DNA of 64,000 nucleotides from a virus: positions 1-64,000 of the IMG/VR virus record IMGVR_UViG_3300045988_160931; one strand, given 5' to 3'. The notes under the pieces were generated by a model, which saw only the letters and a program-made list of their open reading frames with translations, ran no database searches and was not told the DNA's origin. Of the stretch, positions 1,057 through 45,169 are shown one piece after another; within the stretch, counting starts at the first letter, position 1, and every line of letters starts with the position of its first letter. The translations under genes and the position numbers were made by a program.

Positions 1057-1677
1057 ATGAATACAACAAAGGATACTATTGAAAAGATCACGTCTTACAT
1101 TTCTAATTTAGCAGGTTTTCCAGTCAAGAATCTGGAAACAAGCTGGGAAGAATACACAGAGCAACATCACATTTGTGAAGAAGCATTTAATATGTGGAAC
1201 AAAGGCAGAGACTACGAAGAATACAGAAAGAATGCGCATTTGTACAATGGATACAAGATCAAGTTTTCTTTTGATTCTGAATGGCTTACAAACGAAGATC
1301 TGATTACTCTGATGGAAAAATATAATTGCTTGAAATCTGGGATTGAATGGTATGAAGATGATCTTAAAATGCTCCGTGAGAATGGCGGCAGCATGGAATA
1401 TAAACGGCAGTGGATATTCCAATTTGATCTTGATATCTTAAAAGACAGCACTGATAATACGCATCCGAAATACGTCTGGGGATGGAAAGAAACTGACACA
1501 TTCCTTGCAACAAACGACTCAACATTTGATGACGAAGAATATCAACCAGCGGAAAATGACCCGGAATTTGAATCAAAATCTAAACTGATTTTTGCATTAG
1601 ATCGTGCGGAACTTATTTTTCACGATATCGCTCCGGAAAACGCCATTGAAATTGCACATATGATTATTGATCGCTAG
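1057..1677 (+). CDS. hypothetical protein
   Basis: ORF 964..1677; internal ATG 1057 lies 9 nt after GGAGG. Confidence 0.75.
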   Translation: MNTTKDTIEKITSYISNLAGFPVKNLETSWEEYTEQHHICEEAFNMWNKGRDYEEYRKNAHLYNGYKIKFSFDSEWLTNEDLITLMEKYNCLKSGIEWYEDDLKMLRENGGSMEYKRQWIFQFDLDILKDSTDNTHPKYVWGWKETDTFLATNDSTFDDEEYQPAENDPEFESKSKLIFALDRAELIFHDIAPENAIEIAHMIIDR

Positions 1678-1688
1678 GAGGAATTTTT

Positions 1689-2111
1689 ATGGCAATGGCA
1701 AACGTTGATTTGGTATGCAAGAAATGCGGAAAATCTTTCACATTTTCAAAAAGCTGCATGAGTAGACGTGCTGCGGATGATTGCGAAGAATGGGCAAAGT
1801 CTGTGATTGATCTATGCCCGGATTGCAGAAGAGAAGAGGAAAATCTAAAGGAATTCGCTGAAGATGAGAAAATAGGACTCTGTACATTGCAGGGAACCCC
1901 GAAACAGGTTTCGTGGGCAGCATCACTCAGACGGAAATATCTCAAAAATTTCTTACCTTACTTTAAGAACCGGGAATTATCAATCGCCGCTGTCAATCAA
2001 GAATCCAGTGCGGAATTTTGGATTGAGAACCGAGAACACCTGTATGATAAGCAGCTTTTGAAATCATTAAGAATGAAATACAGAAAATCAATAGAATCAA
2101 AGGAGGAATAA
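1689..2111 (+). CDS. zinc-ribbon protein, function unknown
   Basis: AGGAGG SD; CKKCG...CPDC cysteine pairs near the N-terminus. Confidence 0.7.
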   Translation: MAMANVDLVCKKCGKSFTFSKSCMSRRAADDCEEWAKSVIDLCPDCRREEENLKEFAEDEKIGLCTLQGTPKQVSWAASLRRKYLKNFLPYFKNRELSIAAVNQESSAEFWIENREHLYDKQLLKSLRMKYRKSIESKEE

Positions 2112-2190
2112 ACCGTGCCAAACGGAAAATTTTATCTACTGTTATAGGATAATATAGAACTTATTACAATTACATACGAATAAGAATAAA

Positions 2191-2221
2191 GCAGTATTGG
2201 AGCGTTCCGGTACTGCTTTTT
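2191..2221. terminator. bidirectional rho-independent terminator
   Basis: 10-bp stem GCAGTATTGG/CCGGTACTGC (two G-U pairs), 6-nt loop, A-run upstream and T-run downstream; sits between convergent genes. Confidence 0.7.
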
Positions 2222-2786
2222 ATATACCCTTTTGACGGAAAATTTCTCGGTAAAGGGCTCTATTATCCGGATTGACAAGAGTATTTCTGTTAACTCGGAT
2301 AAATTTTTTGAATTCTGGCATACGTTGAAACGCTGCTATACTACCGGATACGGAAAATTTTTCGTGTTGCATAGCAGCGTTTACCGTGTGCAGAATCAAT
2401 TCTCTTTTCAATGACTCAAAACAAATGATTGCAGAAAAGGGAATTGCTTTTGTACACGATTCACGCCTTGTATGCGGCTTTTTATTCCCTATATAGATAC
2501 GGAATAGGTAAGCGCCAGAGAACGCTTTAGAATGGATTTTAGACGGTTCTGGGACGTATATAGACAGCGTGGACTTTTTATTTTCGGTACAAAAAATCGT
2601 ATTATAAAGTAGGAGAGAAATTTTACAAGGGCGTTCTGAAATGTGCTGTTCTATGATGGATAAAATATCATGTACAGATGCAAGATCAGAATGTTTGAAC
2701 TGGATTGATTGAACGGAATATTCTTGTATGATAGAGTTATCAAGATCGTCTTGTATGGAATTTTCGATTGATTCAGATTGATTCAT
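2220..2786 (-). CDS. LytTR-domain DNA-binding protein (putative transcriptional regulator)
   Basis: The C-terminal third (IPFSAIICFESLKRELILHT...FIRVNRNTLVNPDN) fits the LytTR pattern (I.yiE...ihT...F.RvHRSyiVN). Only minus-strand gene in the early region, divergent from 3411. Confidence 0.55.
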   Translation of the reverse strand: MNQSESIENSIQDDLDNSIIQEYSVQSIQFKHSDLASVHDILSIIEQHISERPCKISLLLYNTIFCTENKKSTLSIYVPEPSKIHSKAFSGAYLFRIYIGNKKPHTRRESCTKAIPFSAIICFESLKRELILHTVNAAMQHEKFSVSGSIAAFQRMPEFKKFIRVNRNTLVNPDNRALYREIFRQKGI

Positions 2787-2877
2787 GATGTAGTTTCTCC
2801 TTATTTTAACATGATGTATAGGAAATAAATGTGCAAAATTATGTACGGAAAATTTTGTTTATGAAACTTTGTGTTGC

Positions 2878-2906
2878 TTCGTAGATAGAAACGATTTTCG
2901 TAGATA
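2878..2906 (+). repeat. direct repeat TTCGTAGATA x2 in the control region
   Basis: Exact 10-mers at 2878 and 2897. A second exact repeat, AACTTTGTGTTG, occurs at 2865 and 2951. Confidence 0.6.
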
Positions 2907-3063
2907 AATATTGTTTTTTGTCGGCAGATATTTAATAATTGTATAAAGGCAACTTTGTGTTGTCTGGAATATTATTCATGATATGTAGACAGAAAACAGA
3001 ATAATAATTGACATCTTCATATACCTCCATTCTGTTATATGGCAGGCAAGTATGACTGTTTAG

Positions 3064-3094
3064 ACGGAAAATTTATTTCTCCTAGATGGAAAAT
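3064..3094 (+). promoter_or_regulatory. paired 9-mer site (ACGGAAAAT-N13-ATGGAAAAT), candidate LytTR operator
   Basis: Two direct 9-mers with a 13-nt spacer (22-nt register) in the 620-bp intergenic region. Confidence 0.4.
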
Positions 3095-3410
3095 TCTTGC
3101 CTGCCGGGTATGGGCGTAAAGGATTTGATTTCAGTTTTCTGAAATGCTCAGTTCGATTCTGAGAACGCTCACAACAACACGGTGTTATGTGTACACAATT
3201 AGTATACACGATGATGAATGGAAAATTCAAATGAAAGGACGTGATTCAATGCTGTACGGAAAAACACATTTGAAAATCTTATAGCGAGATGGTTCGTTTT
3301 TGAACGGGAAATTATAGTAACTGATTGCATGGTAGCTTATGTAGTTGACTGCATCAATGCTATCAAAATAACATTGGTATGGTAAAAACTCACTGAAAGG
3401 AAGTATAAGT

Positions 3411-4406
3411 ATGGAAAACAATGTAGAGAACACTGGTATGCTCAAAAATTTGCATCTCACAAAGCTTATCAATGGGCACACGATTGAAGCGAAAGAGTAT
3501 AATGGCAAGCGTGTGATTACATTTAAGGATATTGATGAAGTGCATGAGAGACCGGAAGGAACGGCAAAACGGAATTTTAATGCAAATAAGAAATGGTTCA
3601 TTGAAGGAGAAGATTACTTTAGAATATCGCCGTACGAATTTCGTACGGCGTTCGGTGGAATGGATAAGCGGCAGCAGAATGATGTTGTTCTTGCAACCGA
3701 ATCTGGTTATCTCATGATTATCAAGTCTTTTCATGATGATTTGTCTTGGCAGTTGCAGCGGATTCTTGTGAACTCTTATTTCAAAGCGAAGGAGATGCAG
3801 TCGGAAAATTATGATGACTTGTCCCCAATGCTCCGGATGTTCATTCAGCAGGAACGTCAGATGAAAGCAATGCAGACAGAAATTGCAGATACAAAGGCAC
3901 AGCTGGAGATTACGCAGACGGAAAATCAGAAGCATAGCGAACGCCTGAATACCATTGATGGCAAAATCAATGCGGTTTCTGATGCAATCAAGCTGGATTC
4001 TACCAGTTGGCGTAAAGAAGTATCGTCCGTCATTCGGAAAATTTGTCGTAATGCAAATGATGCTTATCCAACAGTCGGGATTTTGTACGGTGAAATTTAT
4101 AAGGTTCTGGAACTTCGTGCAAAGTGTAATCTGACTACCAGACTGACACACAAACAGGTGCGTATGCGTGATGCTGGTGTGTGTATGAGTAAGGTAAAAC
4201 AGGTAAACCGTTTAGATATTATTGCAGAGGATGCACAACTGACGGAAATTTTCATTGCAATCGTGCGTGAGTATGCTATTAAGTTCGGCATTCGTTGTGA
4301 TTTGAATCAGAGCCAGACGGAAAATTCTGTTGTAGAAGGCTCTTCTTCTGTAAATAGTTCTGTAGAAGATGCAATTACAATTGATACAGATGCAAAAGCA
4401 ATATAA
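3411..4406 (+). CDS. ORF6N-domain DNA-binding / antirepressor-like protein
   Basis: N-terminus RVITFKDIDEVHERPEGTAKRNFNANKKWFIEGEDYF matches the ORF6N pattern; coiled-coil C-terminal half. Confidence 0.8.
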   Translation: MENNVENTGMLKNLHLTKLINGHTIEAKEYNGKRVITFKDIDEVHERPEGTAKRNFNANKKWFIEGEDYFRISPYEFRTAFGGMDKRQQNDVVLATESGYLMIIKSFHDDLSWQLQRILVNSYFKAKEMQSENYDDLSPMLRMFIQQERQMKAMQTEIADTKAQLEITQTENQKHSERLNTIDGKINAVSDAIKLDSTSWRKEVSSVIRKICRNANDAYPTVGILYGEIYKVLELRAKCNLTTRLTHKQVRMRDAGVCMSKVKQVNRLDIIAEDAQLTEIFIAIVREYAIKFGIRCDLNQSQTENSVVEGSSSVNSSVEDAITIDTDAKAI

Positions 4407-4567
4407 ATTAAAATAAAATTTACAATTGGAATGGGATGTATATGCTAATTTTGATAACAGTACATATTGTACGGAATATTTTTCTGTTATAGAAAATGTA
4501 TAATATACATAATGGGAGTATAAAAAATATTGTGACACGGAAAATTTGTTGTAGGAGGAATACGAAA

Positions 4568-5200
4568 ATGTATAATGCAAATGCAGTAGTAGAATCAATG
4601 GATTCAGACTTTGAAGCGGCAATGATGCTGCATGGGGAAGAACAGGTGGGAAAAGTAAAAATCAGAGAAAGAGAGGTTAATGAGAAAATCGCAAGAATTG
4701 AGAAAACAATTGGCAAGAGCAAGCTGACAGAAAAGAATGTATATGAGATGATCGACTTGCTGATAAAGAATTTTTCAGCATCTCCGTGGGATATTGATAC
4801 CGCAGATGGAAGATTTTTTGGAGACAAAAACAAGTTTTCAACAATTGAATATGGTGTCTTAGATCAATATAGAAATAACGAAATTGTCACACCGGGTCTG
4901 TTGCAAAAAAATTGTTATGGAGTAGTAAATGTTTCACAGGATGGAATTTTTTCTTTGGAAACTTTCCCGGCAATTGGAGTGCAATATGCAAGAGAACTGG
5001 TTAAAGATTCTCCGAAAGACAGAGAAACCACATGGAATACTTTTCAATTTCCTTTGCTTTCGGTTAGTGATGTAACAATGTCAAAAATGCGGCTAACTTG
5101 TCTGGATGGGTTTGTGTATAATATTCATACAATTTCATTCAAAATTACTGTAAATAAGCAAACACTTGGTTGTACGTTTAAGGTGAAGGTTCGTGATTAA
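4568..5200 (+). CDS. hypothetical protein
   Basis: ORF 4496..5200; ATG 4568 follows GGAGGA. Confidence 0.7.
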   Translation: MYNANAVVESMDSDFEAAMMLHGEEQVGKVKIREREVNEKIARIEKTIGKSKLTEKNVYEMIDLLIKNFSASPWDIDTADGRFFGDKNKFSTIEYGVLDQYRNNEIVTPGLLQKNCYGVVNVSQDGIFSLETFPAIGVQYARELVKDSPKDRETTWNTFQFPLLSVSDVTMSKMRLTCLDGFVYNIHTISFKITVNKQTLGCTFKVKVRD

Positions 5201-5231
5201 CAATGACAAATAAAGCAAAGGGTGTGATATA

Positions 5232-6170
5232 TTGCCAGATCATAGAATGTTTAGCCGAAGAATTTGTGAATCAGCACGGTTCTTGCAGATGCCCCCTAGT
5301 ACACAGAATCTCTACTTCCACCTGGGGCTTCATGCGGATGACGATGGTGTAGTGGAGGCATTCTCCGTGCTTAGAATTGTTAATGCAACAGAAGATGATT
5401 TGCGTATTTTGGTTGCAAGGCGGTTTGTGATAGTTTTGAATGAAGATTTGATTACATACATTGTCGATTGGACGGAAAATAATCGTATTCGTTCCGATCG
5501 TAAAGTAGATTCAATCTATCAAGACTTGTTGCTGCAAATTGTACCAGACGCTCCAATTCAGAAGCGAAAGCAGAGAGCTGATAGAAAACCACGAACGGAA
5601 AATTTGGCGGGAGGTATTCAGACGGATAGAAAATTGATAGAAGAATCTGTAACTGATGTACCTATAAATGGGAATAATGCTGTTGAAAACAGTGTTGAAA
5701 CTCAGTTGAAAAGTTGTAATAAAATGGGCTATGCTGGATTGAATACACAAAAAGAAAACAATTCAGCAACAGAAAACATGGGACGTCCCATGGACGCAGA
5801 TGGACGGCATAAGACAAGTAAAGTTAAGTTAAGTAATAGTCTGTCTTTGTCAAGTCTGTCTGCAAAACATGGAGAACTTTCAACTGTTGAAACTGTTGAA
5901 AAATGTTCTGTATCAGAACAGAGGTCAGTCCCTACATTGCAAGAGGTTTTGGATTATGCAGAAGCAATGAAGTCTAATGTGAACCCATATCGTTTTTATG
6001 AATACTATGAGAAAAGTGGATGGGAGATTAAACCTGGCGAGCCAATTCGAAATTGGAAAAGTTTGTTCCATAGTTGGCATATTCATGAGGGTATCTTCCC
6101 TAAAAAAGTGCCACAGAAAAGTGATTCAACAGTCGATTACTCTCAATTTGTGTGCAACACTGACAAATAA
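5232..6170 (+). CDS. phage replisome organizer / DnaD-like replication initiation protein
   Basis: N-terminus FLQMPPSTQNLYFHLGLHADDDGVVEA fits the replisome-organizer N-domain pattern. Start is uncertain (TTG 5232, ATA 5229 or ATG 5247). Confidence 0.65.
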   Translation: MPDHRMFSRRICESARFLQMPPSTQNLYFHLGLHADDDGVVEAFSVLRIVNATEDDLRILVARRFVIVLNEDLITYIVDWTENNRIRSDRKVDSIYQDLLLQIVPDAPIQKRKQRADRKPRTENLAGGIQTDRKLIEESVTDVPINGNNAVENSVETQLKSCNKMGYAGLNTQKENNSATENMGRPMDADGRHKTSKVKLSNSLSLSSLSAKHGELSTVETVEKCSVSEQRSVPTLQEVLDYAEAMKSNVNPYRFYEYYEKSGWEIKPGEPIRNWKSLFHSWHIHEGIFPKKVPQKSDSTVDYSQFVCNTDK

Positions 6171-6214
6171 TTAGGATTAGTTTTGTTGAAACAATATGAA
6201 ATATACAATTCATG

Positions 6215-6243
6215 TTGACAAATAGAAGGGAGTGTTGTATAAT
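6215..6243 (+). promoter_or_regulatory. consensus sigma70 promoter
   Basis: TTGACA 6215-6220, 17-nt spacer, TATAAT 6238-6243. Confidence 0.65.
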
Positions 6244-6287
6244 ATGGGTAGAAGTTACGTCCGGTTTCGGAAATTGAGGTGTTAGAA

Positions 6288-6899
6288 ATGGGGATAAATA
6301 ACTGTACGTGTAAGAGTTGTGGCAGAGAGAATAAAAATGGAGATGTGTTTTGCCGCTATTGTGGGAAACCACTTCCTAGTAAAGGCGAGATTCAAAAGAG
6401 ACAGGAGAAACAGAAAAAGCAATTAAGTATAGCTTCAATTTTCCTCGCAATTATTTTCGTAGTATCAATTGTGCTATTTGTAATAGATTATACGAATAAC
6501 CGTAAGGCAAAAGAAAGTTCGATAGCAGAATCTAATTTGCTAAATGATGATTCATATGAAACTTATTCGTTAGGAGATATTAAATTTAGGATTCCAGATA
6601 CTTACAAAGAGGTTGATGTGAGCGAAGTTGGGGATGATACTCTTGGGTTTTCAGATGAAGGTGCTAGTAATATATTCATCGTAATAATGATGGCAAACTC
6701 AAATGAAAAACTTATTGATGAATTTGTCGATAAAACTCATGTAGAATCCGAATATAATCCAGAGACCAAATTTTACACATTCACTAGGGAAGATGGAGAA
6801 ATTACTTACGGTTATCTTAGCGAAGATAATAATTTTTATATGTTTGCTATAACTGGTGATGATGCACTTTCAATCCTAGATACAGTTAAACAAAAATAA
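6288..6899 (+). CDS. zinc-ribbon membrane protein
   Basis: CKSCG...CRYCG ribbon, then one hydrophobic helix (IASIFLAIIFVVSIVLFVI), then a soluble domain. Confidence 0.7.
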   Translation: MGINNCTCKSCGRENKNGDVFCRYCGKPLPSKGEIQKRQEKQKKQLSIASIFLAIIFVVSIVLFVIDYTNNRKAKESSIAESNLLNDDSYETYSLGDIKFRIPDTYKEVDVSEVGDDTLGFSDEGASNIFIVIMMANSNEKLIDEFVDKTHVESEYNPETKFYTFTREDGEITYGYLSEDNNFYMFAITGDDALSILDTVKQK

Positions 6900-7636: not shown

Positions 7637-7665
7637 TTGACTTTTTCGCTGATATCGTGTATAAT
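7637..7665 (+). promoter_or_regulatory. sigma70-type promoter
   Basis: TTGACT 7637-7642, 17-nt spacer, TATAAT 7660-7665. Confidence 0.65.
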
Positions 7666-7746: not shown

Positions 7747-8472
7747 ATGAGTACTGTGGCAGCAACAATGGAAAGATGTTTTACGCTTACCAGAACAGGG
7801 AAAAGCAACAACAACACATCTCATAAGCAGCGTGGTGTTTCTTCTGAAGTGTACGCATTCCAGACGGAAGAAGAACTCTGGGCAATGATTGAAAGATTCA
7901 ACGAAAAGATTGCCGAGGCTAAGTCAGAAGAACAGGAGAGAATCCAGAGCCGGAATAAGCTTTTGTTTTTGATCGGCATAAATGTTGGACTGAGATGTTC
8001 TGATTTGGTCAGCTTGAAATGGAGTTTCTTTTTTGATGAGAACATGAAAATGCGGCAAGGATATTCTCTTGCTCCTAAAAAGACGAAAAATAAAATCGTA
8101 AAGTTGCGGTTTAACGCTGCAATTGAAAAAGCGATTATGGAATACATTGAAAAGTATCCTATTCGAGACTTGAATGATTATGTATTTGAGTCACGAAAAG
8201 GGGAACATCTCTTGGAAAGATGTGTGTGTAGAATCATAAAAGAAGCTGCACAAGATGTTGGGATTGAACGGAATATTGGCTCACACTCTTTAAGAAAAAC
8301 ATTTGGGTTCTGGTGCTGGCATAATGCACAGGATTCAGATAAAGCATTGGTTATCTTACAGAAGATATTCAATCATTCTTCTACGCAGACAACGCTACAG
8401 TATATTGGTGTGCTGCAACAGGAGATGGATGATATGTATGAGAACCTTGATCTTGGAATTGATTTCATTTAA
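7747..8472 (+). CDS. small tyrosine recombinase (phage integrase family, 241 aa)
   Basis: LRCSDLVSLKW, GSHSLRKTFG and HSSTQTTLQYI match the R...H-x-x-R...Y catalytic core. Confidence 0.8.
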   Translation: MSTVAATMERCFTLTRTGKSNNNTSHKQRGVSSEVYAFQTEEELWAMIERFNEKIAEAKSEEQERIQSRNKLLFLIGINVGLRCSDLVSLKWSFFFDENMKMRQGYSLAPKKTKNKIVKLRFNAAIEKAIMEYIEKYPIRDLNDYVFESRKGEHLLERCVCRIIKEAAQDVGIERNIGSHSLRKTFGFWCWHNAQDSDKALVILQKIFNHSSTQTTLQYIGVLQQEMDDMYENLDLGIDFI

Positions 8473-10645: not shown

Positions 10646-10840
10646 ATGAGTAAGAAGAGTAGAAAGATGAAGAAAACAAATCTGATGAAGTGGGATGATC
10701 TTATTCGGAATACAAAAAAGATTACACCGTTTTGCGACAAAGACGGTAATGTAATCTGGGGAACGGATAAAAATGCAAAGAAGAAAAAGAGATTAAAGGA
10801 TGGTGGTGAGAATTGTCAAGAAGAGAACAACAATATTTAA
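10646..10840 (+). CDS. small lysine-rich protein
   Basis: ATG 10646 follows AAAGAGAG; its stop overlaps the next start (TAATG). Confidence 0.5.
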   Translation: MSKKSRKMKKTNLMKWDDLIRNTKKITPFCDKDGNVIWGTDKNAKKKKRLKDGGENCQEENNNI

Positions 10841-11382
10841 TGACGGAGAGCCAAAAAGCCTTAGTCTCTAAGCATCATAATCTGATCTACGGTTTTATGA
10901 GAAAGCATGAAATGATTCGCACTGACAAAACCGATGTTTCTAATTGGTATGGTATCCTTGCAATTGCTTTAATCAAAGCCGGATATAATTGGAATGAAGC
11001 AAGAGGTAGCTTTACATCATACGCATGGGGCTTAATGGCAAATGCGTATAAGGATGAGATTAAATCAAGAAAAAGAAGTAAACGAAACAGTATAGTTGTA
11101 AGTCTTGACGAGCCTATTGGTGTTTCGGATGGAGAAGCAGTTTGTATTGGCGATATCATTCCGGATGAATCTTCTGAAAATGACCTGGAAAATTACGTGA
11201 TAAATAAGATTATGTTTATCAATGTATTTGCTGTTCTTTCTCAGAAAGAAGAAGTGGTTGTGGAATCAAAAATGAATAGTCATACAAACAGAGAGATCGC
11301 ACAAAAGTTGAACTGCTCTGAGCAGAATATTGGATATATGATAAGAAAAATCCGTAAGAAAATATCGGTATATTTTGATTGA
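10840..11382 (+). CDS. sigma-70 family (ECF-size) RNA polymerase sigma factor
   Basis: About 180 aa. Region-2-like FTSYAWGLMANAYKDEI and a region-4 HTH (TNREIAQKLNCSEQNIGYMIRKIRKKI). Confidence 0.75.
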   Translation: MTESQKALVSKHHNLIYGFMRKHEMIRTDKTDVSNWYGILAIALIKAGYNWNEARGSFTSYAWGLMANAYKDEIKSRKRSKRNSIVVSLDEPIGVSDGEAVCIGDIIPDESSENDLENYVINKIMFINVFAVLSQKEEVVVESKMNSHTNREIAQKLNCSEQNIGYMIRKIRKKISVYFD

Positions 11383-21457: not shown

Positions 21458-21654
21458 CATACAAAATGCGGCACTGCCCTAATTGTGGTAGGTGTTTGTT
21501 TGAAAATCGTAATTGATGTCATTAGCATTGACAAAATTTATGTGGAAGTATTATGTACAGATAATGTGTTATGCTACGAAGGCGTGACTTTTGAAGAAGC
21601 GGAAAAATGGAGTGGTATGATGCAAGCGTTATTCTGGCGTAGGAGATGAGAACT

Positions 21655-22503
21655 ATGGGAAAAATCTATGTAGGTTTGTACGGTGGCAAATCAATATTCA
21701 AAGGGAAAGAAGTTCCATTACAAGGCGACACAATTTACTGTGAGTGTCCGGACAAATGTTCTTTTTACAAAGAGGGAAAGTGCCTATGTATAAGAAGACT
21801 GGGCATTAAATGCCCTAACGGAACAGTAACCACGGAAAAAGGCTACACTAGCCGAGCAAAGAAGTATGGAGCGTTCCGCCAGAAATACATAAGCGATGAA
21901 ACATATGCTAGATTAAAAGCCCCTTTATATAACCGATTTGCAGTTGTTGGAGATAATTATTGGTTTAGCACTGGCTATGTAAGAGCAAGAAAAGCAAAAG
22001 AAGATGATTCTCCCAGAGAAGTGATGTCCGGATATGTGTTATGGAGTAACATCGGGACATCGGAATTTTGTATTCCAATTGTCGATATGAATATACAGCT
22101 GCTAAACGCCATTCTTTCATATTCACCACGAAATATATTTGGAGAAAGCTTAGAAAAATATTATCTTGAATATGTGGCTGATATTTTGAAGGAAATGCAG
22201 GAAATCGCACCGGAGATGTATCAAGAGCTGACAGAGAAATATCCGGAGTACAAAAGTGAGAAGTATATTCCGAACTACGTTGGCAGATACGCCTATACCC
22301 GAACACTGCGTGACGGCTGTACAATTCATGATGGTCTTGGAAATGTCGGCGTTCTGAAAGACGGAAAGATTTACTGTGATAACCTCAAAGGCATTGTGCC
22401 GTTTGGCGGTGAATCGGCTTCTGTCGTGATAGAGCTGGGAGAAACCAGTACCATCAAAATAACCGACAATTCGCAGGTATGTGAAAGAACAATTTTCAAG
22501 TAA
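21655..22503 (+). CDS. hypothetical protein
   Basis: ATG 21655 lies 9 nt after AGGAG; cysteine-rich N-terminus. Confidence 0.7.
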   Translation: MGKIYVGLYGGKSIFKGKEVPLQGDTIYCECPDKCSFYKEGKCLCIRRLGIKCPNGTVTTEKGYTSRAKKYGAFRQKYISDETYARLKAPLYNRFAVVGDNYWFSTGYVRARKAKEDDSPREVMSGYVLWSNIGTSEFCIPIVDMNIQLLNAILSYSPRNIFGESLEKYYLEYVADILKEMQEIAPEMYQELTEKYPEYKSEKYIPNYVGRYAYTRTLRDGCTIHDGLGNVGVLKDGKIYCDNLKGIVPFGGESASVVIELGETSTIKITDNSQVCERTIFK

Positions 22504-22515
22504 GGAGAATGCGGT

Positions 22516-22680
22516 ATGAAAAGACGGAAAGAAATTAAATTTTACAAAGTTGAGGGATATGTAACTGCGGAGAATGAAAAACAGAAAAATTATCGTCCAT
22601 CAGGTAATGCAACTGCATATATCCCACCTGTGGTAATTGGTTATAGTAAAAGGAGATTTGATAAAGATGGAAGAAACTAA
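22516..22680 (+). CDS. small hypothetical protein (54 aa)
   Basis: AAGGAG 22502-22507, ATG 22516; below the ORF-track cutoff. Confidence 0.4.
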   Translation: MKRRKEIKFYKVEGYVTAENEKQKNYRPSGNATAYIPPVVIGYSKRRFDKDGRN

Positions 22681-23020
22681 TATTAAAGAATGCCTATTCT
22701 GTGGCAACAAGCCGACAATAATCACGAGATATTTGAATTATGAGAAGCCGACATATCAAGTGAAATGTAAATTGTGCGGAACTACAACAATAGAATCTTC
22801 TTCTGAAAAAAATATAATTGATTTTTTGAATCAAAGATTGACTGGTAAACCAAAAACATACCGTCAGTATTTTGAAGAAAATTTTCCGAAAGATAAATTC
22901 CCAAATGCTGATTATGAGGGGATGTGTAGAGAAATGTTTTTCGGGAATGATAACAGGGATTATAATTGTGCTTATGGCGAAACTTCTTGTGAAAAATGTT
23001 GGAACGAAGAAATAAAATAA
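22667..23020 (+). CDS. Lar-like zinc-ribbon protein
   Basis: IKECLFCGNKPT signature; ATG 22667 follows AAGGAG. Confidence 0.55.
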   Translation: MEETNIKECLFCGNKPTIITRYLNYEKPTYQVKCKLCGTTTIESSSEKNIIDFLNQRLTGKPKTYRQYFEENFPKDKFPNADYEGMCREMFFGNDNRDYNCAYGETSCEKCWNEEIK

Positions 23021-44007: not shown

Positions 44008-45169
44008 AAATTTTTGGCGTGTTAATCAGAAATGAATAACATTATTAGAGGGCAAAATCGGTGAAGGTTAAATAATGGCATAAATTAAAAGAATAAGGAT
44101 GGCGCTTATAAAATCAAGAATAACAGAATTACAAAAGAATGAAATTAAAGAAATGTACAAAAGTGGCATGACGTGTAAAGAGATTTTTCGAAAGTTTTCA
44201 AATATCTATAGCTGTGAAGAATCGATTCAAAAAATAGTAAGGAATATGGGCATTTCAAGAGGTAAATATAAAAAACCTGTTGTAGTCGATGAAAACTATT
44301 TTGAATGTATTGATAATGAGCGTAAGGCTTATTGGGTTGGTTTTTTACTTGCAGATGGATGTATTATAAAATATAAAAACAAATCTGATACATTAAAATT
44401 AGAGTTAAGTGTAAAAGATAAGTATATTATAGAATCATTTGCGAAAGATATTAAAACAGATAGAAAAGTAAGAGATTATAAATATAGTAAAAAGCACAAT
44501 GCTCAAATACAAATTAAGTCAAACAAAATATCAAATGATTTAAGCAAATATGGAATAGTGCCAAATAAAACATTTAAGATTGATGGTATAAAAAATATTC
44601 CAATTGAATTAATACGACACTTTATAAGAGGATATTTTGATGGAGACGGTTGTGCTTATTTATATAAACCTAAAGATCAAAATAAACATAGACTTACAAT
44701 AACATTTTGTGGGACAAAAGATTTTTTGAATGATCTGAATACCACTCTATCTGCACAGGCATTTACAGAAACAAGAACATTAATTGACATGAATAAATAC
44801 GGATGTAACGTGTTTAATTTAAGATATATCGGTAATAACGATATTAGGAATCTATTTAATTATATGTATAAAGATGCCACTGTATACTTAAAAAGAAAAA
44901 GAGAAAAGTTTATTACGTTTTTTAACGAACGAAATTAAAAGCCATTACATACTAATACCGAGGTAAATTGAAAAAGTAAAAATTTTCAATCACCGTAGAG
45001 CGTAGTAGGTGAACCTTTTTTTAGAAAGAATATAATCCTACCAAGAGTGTCCACTACCTAAACATGAATTGTAGGTAAAAATGTACGCCGACCTATATTG
45101 AAAAATATAGAAGTGGATGTGTGAATTGACACACTATTAATAGATAAAAAGCTCCACGATAACATAGTG
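44008..45169 (+). mobile_element. group I intron carrying a homing endonuclease
   Basis: The 5' exon ends in U and the intron ends in G. GGCAAA 44051-44056 can pair with exon TTTGCT (U-G at the junction). Stem-rich 230-nt 3' part. Exon fusion restores RRGFAKKTGTGK. Confidence 0.7.
44099..44938 (+). CDS. LAGLIDADG homing endonuclease (double-motif)
   Basis: YWVGFLLADGC and FIRGYFDGDGC motifs. Confidence 0.85.
   Translation: MALIKSRITELQKNEIKEMYKSGMTCKEIFRKFSNIYSCEESIQKIVRNMGISRGKYKKPVVVDENYFECIDNERKAYWVGFLLADGCIIKYKNKSDTLKLELSVKDKYIIESFAKDIKTDRKVRDYKYSKKHNAQIQIKSNKISNDLSKYGIVPNKTFKIDGIKNIPIELIRHFIRGYFDGDGCAYLYKPKDQNKHRLTITFCGTKDFLNDLNTTLSAQAFTETRTLIDMNKYGCNVFNLRYIGNNDIRNLFNYMYKDATVYLKRKREKFITFFNERN

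Follow-up and report, generated by a model that had tools for sequence, protein, structure and literature searches.

The sequence analysed here, hereafter the window, comprises positions 1 to 64,000 (64,000 nucleotides) of the IMG/VR virus record IMGVR_UViG_3300045988_160931, and the subject is a nine-nucleotide word, ACGGAAAAT, that occurred in ten exact copies among the first early genes and on the plus strand only. The source is a large gut phage (~107 kb) with a replication module distantly like that of SPbeta, rather than a small temperate phage. The plus strand encoded a DnaB-like helicase, a DnaE-type polymerase, a RecD/Dda-like helicase, NrdD, ThyX, methylases and many small open reading frames (ORFs) up to ~57 kb; from 57 kb, tail genes and an endolysin gene were located on the minus strand. 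SPbeta YorI, YorJ and YorL each had a distant homologue in the window (26–32% identity), and an 84%-identical relative was found as a 107,378-bp IMG/VR contig. The block that carries the word consisted, in order, of small ORFs, a Zn-finger gene, a LytTR gene, a 624-bp intergenic region, an ORF6N gene, a gene for a protein of 210 amino acids (aa) and a gene for a DnaD-like replisome organizer (Table 1).

The original prediction had placed ten plus-strand copies of ACGGAAAAT between 2122 and 5603 and none in the rest of the window, and this was confirmed by counting on both strands of the whole 64 kb. The background was estimated from 100 dinucleotide-preserving shuffles, in which the word occurred 0.73 times on average and five times at most; a survey of k-mers showed that it was the sole strongly clustered 8–10-mer of the window. 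Seven of the ten copies extended to ACGGAAAATTT, in agreement with the earlier statement that most do. The seven one-mismatch copies listed previously were all present, and others were found at 1549, 1726, 2080, 2713 and 4471. The 8-mer CGGAAAAT had 14 plus-strand copies, all within 1550–5596 (four of them, starting from 1549, additional to the exact 9-mers), and a single minus-strand copy at 22881. The pentanucleotide CGGAA occurred 10, 13, 7 and 5 times on the plus strand in successive 2-kb intervals of the first 8 kb, against 0, 1, 1 and 1 on the minus strand (35 versus 3 in total), and showed no skew in the window beyond 8 kb. Since one-mismatch copies, 8-mer and CGGAA core shared the same clustering and skew, the sites were interpreted as a graded family with the consensus aCGGAAAATtt and the exact 9-mer as its top tier.

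In total, the early region contained ~16 to 20 sites in a single orientation, spread over more than 6 kb with irregular spacing (22–935 bp). The claim that the motif is confined to 2122–5603 therefore held for the exact copies and not for the cluster, which was wider; its left end in the window lay at or before 1549, and relatives with contigs reaching further left carried more copies ~0.6–1 kb upstream of the window start. In these relatives, the CGGAA skew began ~2 kb past a divergently transcribed HTH_26 repressor-like gene. Copies within the minus-strand LytTR gene, like all intergenic copies, remained on the plus strand, and orientation was therefore taken to be a property of the region and not of the local coding strand. 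A search of phage databases with the DNA of 1500–6300 returned short unrelated matches only, and a literature search for the 9-mer returned only coincidental primers.

Some further word distributions were recorded. GGAAAAT itself was enriched on the plus strand of the first 5.6 kb, where 23 of its 33 plus-strand copies were found. A weak second plus-strand group was seen at 21600–22530, with ACGGAAAAA at 21832 and AGACGGAAAGA at 22359 and 22522, and the sole minus-strand CGGAAAAT lay near this faint group. GAGGAAAAT occurred at 458, 1044 and 1836, at or near the ribosome-binding sites of early genes, and (T/C)GTGGAAAAT occurred three times within 513–624.

Table 1. Motif copies, genes and control elements of the early block, with positions in the window.
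Feature	Position	Strand	Context
GCGGAAAAT	1549..1557	+	In frame (Ala-Glu-Asn) in a 206-aa gene; leftmost copy of the 8-mer core in the window
GCGGAAAAT	1726..1734	+	Inside the 140-aa Zn-finger gene
One-mismatch copy	2080	+	
Exact ACGGAAAAT	2122..2130	+	Intergenic; follows the stop codon of the 140-aa Zn-finger gene and precedes the bidirectional terminator
Bidirectional intrinsic terminator	2188..2219	.	14-bp stem, -18.9 kcal/mol; separates the convergent 140-aa and LytTR genes
188-aa protein with C-terminal LytTR domain	2220..2786	-	Only minus-strand gene of the early region
Exact ACGGAAAAT	2235..2243	+	Antisense at the 3' end of the LytTR gene (Ile-Phe-Arg there)
Exact ACGGAAAAT	2350..2358	+	Antisense in the LytTR gene, in a frame other than that of the 2235 copy
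ACGGAATAT	2713..2721	+	Antisense in the 5' part of the LytTR gene
Divergent control region, AT-rich, 624 bp	2787..3410	.	LytTR to ORF6N; six motif copies; ACTTTGTGTTG twice among other short repeats
Exact ACGGAAAAT	2845..2853	+	624-bp LytTR/ORF6N intergenic region; within the spacer of a weak promoter-like site on the minus strand (2865-2838)
Pair ACGGAAAAT-N13-ATGGAAAAT	3064..3094 (3064, 3086)	+	Flanked by an inverted repeat, 3041-3053 / 3093-3105
One-mismatch ATGGAAAAT	3218	+	Upstream of the ORF6N gene
One-mismatch ACGGAAAAA	3256	+	Upstream of the ORF6N gene
One-mismatch ACGGGAAAT	3304 (ends 3312)	+	Upstream of the ORF6N gene; exact ACGGAAAAT in relatives
ORF6N-domain 'anti-repressor'-type gene	3411..4406	+	Hosts five copies
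TCGGAAAAT	3801..3809	+	ORF6N gene, in frame (Ser-Glu-Asn)
Exact ACGGAAAAT	3918..3926	+	ORF6N gene, in frame (Thr-Glu-Asn)
TCGGAAAAT	4034..4042	+	ORF6N gene, other frame (Arg-Lys-Ile)
One-mismatch ACGGAAATT	4242..4250	+	ORF6N gene, in frame (Thr-Glu-Ile)
Exact ACGGAAAAT	4317..4325	+	Near the 3' end of the ORF6N gene, in frame (Thr-Glu-Asn)
One-mismatch ACGGAATAT	4471..4479	+	Intergenic
Exact ACGGAAAAT	4537..4545	+	22 nt before the start codon (4568) of the 210-aa gene, adjoining its ribosome-binding site
210-aa protein without family match	4568..5200	+	Kept in all relatives examined
DnaD-like replisome organizer	5232..6170	+	N-terminal 120 aa widely conserved
Exact ACGGAAAAT	5472..5480	+	Replisome-organizer gene (W-T-E-N-N)
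Exact ACGGAAAAT	5595..5603	+	Replisome-organizer gene (R-T-E-N-L); last copy of the cluster
Perfect TTGACA-17-TATAAT promoter	6215..6243	+	~600 nt past the last copy; right boundary of the motif-bearing block

The gene contexts were as previously described, i.e., antisense in two frames of the LytTR gene and in frame as Thr-Glu-Asn in the ORF6N and organizer genes. All four Thr-Glu-Asn tripeptides within the cluster were encoded by ACG-GAA-AAT, where ACG accounts for 14% of threonine codons; three such tripeptides elsewhere used ACA, ACC or ACT. The copy at 5472 fell in the organizer motif DW-x-ENN, at which homologues have lysine, arginine or asparagine in position x; only in this lineage was x threonine (ACG), completing the 9-mer. 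In a relative of 83% identity, eight of the ten exact copies were unchanged where ~2 were expected, two had been lost in diverged segments and one had been gained, at 3304. Two further relatives showed the same pattern of conservation and turnover. Across 22 sequences of the family there were 27 distinct sites and essentially none in the opposite orientation, and the non-homologous segments inserted in some relatives brought new copies with them. The copy at 2235 was kept in 21 of 21 family loci, as well as in the 83%-identity relative.

Based on the codon choice, the conservation and turnover in relatives and the change from lysine, arginine or asparagine to threonine that created the 5472 copy, selection was judged to act at the level of the nucleotides and not of the proteins. 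This conclusion, already proposed in the original prediction and borne out by these sequence comparisons, is well supported. In one relative, the ORF6N gene was split (L001 8163-9173) and in another its place was taken by a 292-aa ORF that lacks the ORF6N domain and is either a replacement or a truncated form (L011 = L495 5739-6617). Because the motif copies persisted there, the ORF6N protein is argued against as a required binder.

IMG/VR was scanned for two copies of ACGGAAAAT separated by 95–125 bp. Most matches were chance pairs or tandem coding repeats; among the rest were other contigs of 100–130 kb with dispersed clusters of the 9-mer on one strand only, always oriented like the small ORFs around them. 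In one group of phages, a noncoding stretch of ~2 kb carried 40–48 copies of CGGAA, all of them on one strand; the consensus was ACGGAAAAttta. These foreign arrays flanked an AT-rich centre and contained sigma-A-like promoters in the same direction. Some dispersed 9-mer cluster of at least five copies was also present in 13 of 64 random phage loci, which by itself would be compatible with recurrence by chance. Neither of two control words, TAAAAGGCA and AGGCAAAAT, formed such a cluster with at least six copies in at least 120 loci each.

One of the foreign loci encoded a YonO-type RNA polymerase (PF05183), which retrieved 78 loci when used as a query. The arrays were situated 4–8 kb upstream of the polymerase gene, on the opposite strand and on the early side, and were present where the polymerase was 58–100% identical to the query and absent at 49% or below. 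At L501, CGGAAAA occurred 37 times on one strand and once on the other. Several loci recovered by the pattern scan (L121, L027, L052 and L066) fell into this polymerase clade, as did most of the foreign matches; there are therefore few independent lineages of the motif, namely the present phage, the polymerase clade and perhaps L053, L105 and L110. The early genes of the clade had conserved sigma-A promoters, aaaCTA-TTGACA-N17-TATAAT, relative to which the position of the motif varied.

The clade itself (L499-L576 in IMG/VR) was large, with contigs of 65–170 kb and a single-chain polymerase of ~950 aa (e.g., L504 10001-12898), the gene for which diverges from the early-gene block as in the yonO/yonR layout of SPbeta. 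On the reverse strand of the first 10 kb of L520 and L523, the promoter aaaCTA-TTGACA-N17-(TG)TATAAT occurred ~9 times per 10 kb, each time after an A/T-rich UP-like tract. SPbeta YonO uses one late promoter (PMC5467207). The idea that the word is a YonO promoter was rejected, given this single late promoter and nothing motif-like in the region upstream of yonK. Among the matches listed in a pair scan of cellular genomes, there were chance pairs and coding repeats (D-G-K-Y type, beta-propeller). At L223, L229, L227 and L172, regular pairs of ACGGAAAAT were mostly D/N-G-K-Y/F coding repeats (GAC GGA AAA TAT ...), and such repeats will therefore be false positives in any scan that uses the word.

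The bidirectional terminator, a strong one, separates the copy at 2122 from those at 2235 and 2350. Past it lay ~8 conserved sites (2235-3304), some antisense within the LytTR gene and the others ahead of the predicted ORF6N promoter. This interval should not be covered by rightward mRNA, so DNA is favoured over mRNA as the target. In a rival explanation, which we regard as rather unlikely, the word is a signal at the level of RNA or coupled to transcription, read on the nascent early transcript or, in the manner of ops, on the non-template strand of the transcription bubble; as RNA, the word (ACGGAAAAU) could be read by an antiterminator, a translational repressor, a sequence-specific ribonuclease or a titrated RNA-binding protein, and the foreign arrays would be sponge RNAs. 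Such a signal would suit the co-orientation of motif and transcription in every phage examined, the sites within ORFs or directly before ribosome-binding sites (4537; also L105, L110 and L075) and the unphased, noncoding foreign arrays with their promoters in the same direction. ACGGA also resembles the loose A-N-GGA core of CsrA-type sites. It is opposed by the sites behind the terminator and by the conservation of all nine bases plus TT, beyond what GGA-type RNA sites need. In predicted RNA folds the motif was unpaired with a probability of 0.48, against 0.51 for control 9-mers, and it lay in hairpin loops no more often than these. No NusG- or RfaH-like gene was seen among the 25 of 48 Pfam families listed, and an Rfam search of the window gave no family match.

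A promoter function was considered in several forms. Taking the motif as a -35 element, a -10 element, a transcription start or a spacer suited only one to three copies each, and these readings were rejected. No constant -35 or -10 partner hexamer was found among the sites, and the distance to the next start codon was not fixed (22 to 1676 nt). A specific version, that the motif replaces the -35 element like a MotA box and serves a phage sigma-like protein, appears scarcely probable. The gene for a sigma-like protein (10813-11382) does lie downstream of the motif block; a -10-like hexamer follows 17 nt downstream of the copies at 2122 (GATAAT) and 2235 (TATTAT) and of three of six sites in L121, and TATAG follows several intergenic copies after 12–15 nt. 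Most copies, however, have no -10 partner, many are hundreds of nucleotides from any downstream start codon, and in the arrays the position of the motif relative to sigma-A promoters varies. Evasion of type III restriction, which involves sites in one orientation, was also rejected: it accounts for the skew and not for the ~100-fold enrichment, and opposite-orientation sites were not avoided elsewhere.

The sites were interpreted, tentatively and with somewhat less than even confidence, as binding sites on double-stranded DNA for an asymmetric, monomer-type protein; collectively, the sites would make up a multi-site array that spans the first early block and serves as operator or roadblock. 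The putative protein would recognize ACGGAAAAT (core CGGAAAA, usually followed by TT) with a monomer-sized footprint of 9 bp per site. With about one site per 150–400 bp through the first early block (anti-repressor and replication-initiation genes), aligned with rightward transcription, the bound protein could occlude nearby promoters and also act as a polar roadblock, hindering rightward RNA polymerase and not leftward; the entire block would thereby be held silent or timed. The leftward LytTR gene, in which two exact copies and a one-mismatch copy keep the same absolute orientation, would stay transcribable. It is this constant orientation, even in a leftward gene, from which we infer a polar obstacle to rightward polymerase and hence polar repression as the effect. 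Helical phasing, at 10–11 bp or 21–22 bp, was found neither in the window nor in the foreign arrays, and for this reason the arrays fit independent binding by monomers.

The local candidate for the binder is the LytTR-domain protein, for which the sites had been suggested as operators; we consider this unlikely, and give about the same odds to a host protein or to a factor in common with other large gut phages. Sites of the LytTR family comprise two 9-bp direct repeats 11–13 bp apart, ~10 bp (4–11 bp) upstream of the -35 element of the regulated promoter (PMC6193735). An asymmetric 9-mer agrees with the suggestion, and the pair 3064/3086 has the corresponding 9+13+9 layout. Every one of the 23+ loci of this phage lineage encoded the LytTR protein, and a search for homologues returned relatives of at least 90% identity only.

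Several observations weigh against the operator array or, more narrowly, against LytTR as its binder. The 3064/3086 pair was the sole one with this layout; the remaining ~19 sites had no partner at 20–23 bp scoring at least 7/9, and no sigma-70-like promoter followed the pair at the LytTR distance on either strand. The LytTR domain appears to be truncated at its C-terminus, in that the Pfam match spans model positions 4–61 of 98 and the protein stops 13 aa later, and an AlphaFold model was uninformative, with a predicted local distance difference test (pLDDT) score of 36. In the sampled 10–23 kb of foreign motif-bearing phages no LytTR homologue was found (hidden Markov model (HMM) searches with E up to 10; no Pfam match), which weakens LytTR as a universal binder. 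Clustering and HMM comparison of the protein families conserved in the foreign loci with those of the window showed only a ThyX-like gene (44099-44935) to be shared. These results suggest as binder a factor common to these phages and encoded outside their sampled regions, or a host protein. Strict orientation to one strand is itself unusual for operators, and the rationale of a polar roadblock was derived from it. About seven sites are inside ORFs and distant from any promoter, and the motif lacks an attached promoter, unlike the SPBRE operators of SPbeta, which have their own -35 and -10 elements. Finally, the foreign arrays, being dense, unphased, noncoding and probably transcribed, would equally suit an RNA 'sponge' or a replication element.

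As a replication element, the copies would be iterons or initiator-loading sites for the organizer or another initiator, with orientation directing oligomer growth or the direction of the fork; iterons for the adjacent organizer had been the first role named previously. Direct repeats in the same orientation are a hallmark of iterons, two exact copies are inside the organizer gene (a frequent location of origins in Firmicute phages), the AT-rich 624-bp intergenic region holds six copies, and the foreign arrays flank an AT-rich centre. Nevertheless, four phages with organizer N-domains ~70% identical to that of the window (L249, L251-L253) had no plus-strand exact ACGGAAAAT and no cluster, L251 having one minus-strand copy. 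The absence of the motif from these phages, together with the irregular, unphased dispersal of sites (22–935 bp apart over more than 6 kb, and likewise unphased in the arrays), disfavours organizer iterons, and the GC skew gave no origin signal. A replication element of any kind is improbable.

That the sites serve a protein of the (probably Ruminococcus-like) host, for instance a nucleoid protein or a global regulator, and were recruited independently by several unrelated phages to sense or exploit the state of that host, is also unlikely. It would explain the same oriented word in groups of phages without detectable shared early proteins, and the two control 9-mers, neither of which formed a dispersed cluster of six or more copies, are in its favour. 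CodY recognizes a 15-bp palindrome with the consensus AATTTTCWGAAAATT, and CGGAAAATT matches C-N-GAAAATT, which forms the right arm of the CodY box AATTTTCNGAAAATT. However, the left arm was not conserved at the sites, the invariant A before CGG contradicts the consensus T (T6), and a dimer bound to a palindrome would not impose one orientation. The motif also follows the phylogeny of the phage RNA polymerase (found down to 58% identity and missing from 49% downwards), a pattern equally compatible with a phage factor and with a host boundary.

The original prediction had further suggested an orientation-dependent signal, either pac-like or Chi-like. A signal that depends on orientation is possible, as is an operator; the pac-like and Chi-like roles fit poorly. 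Chi, KOPS and SRS motifs are typically strand-exclusive, and a polar signal for DNA ends or translocation could provide Chi-like protection from AddAB, constitute a pac series or mark the first-entering segment for injection. Chi-like or KOPS-like behaviour does not fit because the motif was found in the early region only (6–8 kb and not the whole genome), with no exact copy in the other 58 kb and no CGGAA skew beyond 8 kb; moreover, nine conserved bases exceed any Chi sequence known to us (5–8 nt). SPbeta-like phages have their pac site where the RNA-polymerase side meets the early-gene side (bioRxiv 10.1101/2021.11.22.469490). The foreign arrays, 4–8 kb from the polymerase gene on the early side, are placed comparably, but the spread of sites is far too wide for recognition by terminase. 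Overall, a signal of this class is very improbable.

A broader interpretation is possible, although doubtful, in which ACGGAAAAT is a polar 'early-region tag' used across several lineages of 100–170 kb gut Firmicute phages. The tag might be an orientation-dependent signal to a conserved host or phage machine, acting in transcription elongation or roadblocking, genome entry or fork passage. Its logic might then resemble that of Chi, KOPS and ops while applying to the first-expressed segment only, with some phages perhaps amplifying it into kilobase noncoding arrays of 40–50 copies.

If the operator or roadblock array is the correct reading, the oriented sites would define the regulon of a master regulator in common, uncultured large phages of the human gut, and ACGGAAAATTT would offer a simple sequence handle for retrieving that regulator. 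The strict orientation within an opposing gene and the cost in amino acids suggest that direction matters to the mechanism, which has rarely been documented for phage operators. The arrays in phages with a YonO-type polymerase would tie the window to a wider and experimentally tractable puzzle, that of a phage versus a host reader.

Beyond the motif, the right boundary promoter (6215-6243) opened the next gene block, encoding Zn-ribbon membrane proteins, just past the organizer gene; near-perfect promoters were also seen at 974-1002 and 7637-7665. The N-terminal domain of the organizer (~120 aa, 5232-5600) was ~70% identical across many otherwise unrelated Firmicute phages, where it was joined to differing C-terminal domains (DnaB_2, Phg_2220_C or none recognized), and it matched no Pfam model at E up to 0.01. 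A tyrosine recombinase of 241 aa (7747-8472), without an N-terminal core-binding domain, was encoded in the middle of the early genes; its catalytic residues (R, H-x-x-R, H and Y) appear intact, and a second Phage_integrase-family match was found among the ORFs beyond 8.4 kb.

The relatives contained variable cassettes, including a TnpB/IS605 OrfB insertion (L250 17701-18885), and several had a 599-aa DUF4942 (methyltransferase-like) gene in the early region (L001/L004/L006/L008 ~3000-4800); the motif pattern was unchanged by these cassettes. The 107,378-bp relative was present twice in IMG/VR, both times with this same length, and contigs in ENA that contain the locus measured 214,392 and 216,054 bp. 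As this is almost exactly twice 107,378 bp, the long contigs may be assembly products in which a circular or terminally redundant genome appears as a head-to-tail dimer, rather than prophages in a host chromosome. Endolysin homologues, at ~70% identity, were labelled 'Ruminococcus sp.', which weakly suggests a Ruminococcus-like host.

Considered beside known systems, the feature would be a dispersed, asymmetric phage operator set that differs from those described. The closest parallels are found in SPbeta, where the master repressor MrpR (YopR), a protein with the tyrosine-recombinase fold, binds ~10 dispersed, asymmetric SPBRE sites (PMC10516654). The element was re-derived in NC_001884 as aCAAAtAcAAAwAATATGTATA and was always co-oriented with the following gene. 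In that genome (L247, L254; e.g., 116161 and 129216) SPBRE coincided with a full promoter, TAGACA-N17-TATAAT, with AATATGTATA in the spacer/-10 region, and several copies directly preceded a ribosome-binding site. Both systems thus have a short asymmetric element, dispersed and co-oriented in the early genes of a large phage. However, SPBRE is ~24 bp long, has its own promoter, is strictly intergenic and occurs in ~10 copies over ~65 kb, whereas the unit in the window is 9–11 bp and promoter-less, with 16–20 copies in 6–8 kb, at least seven of them (about half) within ORFs. The two sequences are unrelated. By sequence, the best solved-structure match of the 241-aa recombinase was XerH, and MrpR was absent among the matches listed.

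The sites resemble those of LytTR proteins (AgrA, HdrR/BrsR and ComE, or the single 9-mers of AlgR) in being asymmetric and 9 bp long, in including one pair spaced by 13 bp and in having a LytTR-domain gene inside the cluster, adjoining the densest group of sites. They differ in having one pair among ~20 sites, no promoter at the rule distance and an apparently truncated domain; beyond a TCCGT core on the opposite strand, there is presumably no match to the LytTR consensus. Like Chi, KOPS and SRS, the motif is a short strand-exclusive word, but these are spread over whole replicons and read by translocases or nucleases, while the motif belongs to the early block only. Iterons of plasmids and phages are likewise direct repeats in the same orientation near a replication-initiator gene; they are 17–22 bp long, tight and helically phased, in contrast to sites of 9–11 bp distributed irregularly and out of phase over kilobases. 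The C1 repressor of P1 has many monovalent, asymmetric operators of 17 bp that overlap promoters and are scattered genome-wide. The window shares with P1 numerous asymmetric sites for one, here putative, binder in a large phage, but differs in that its sites are gathered in one block and also occur inside ORFs.

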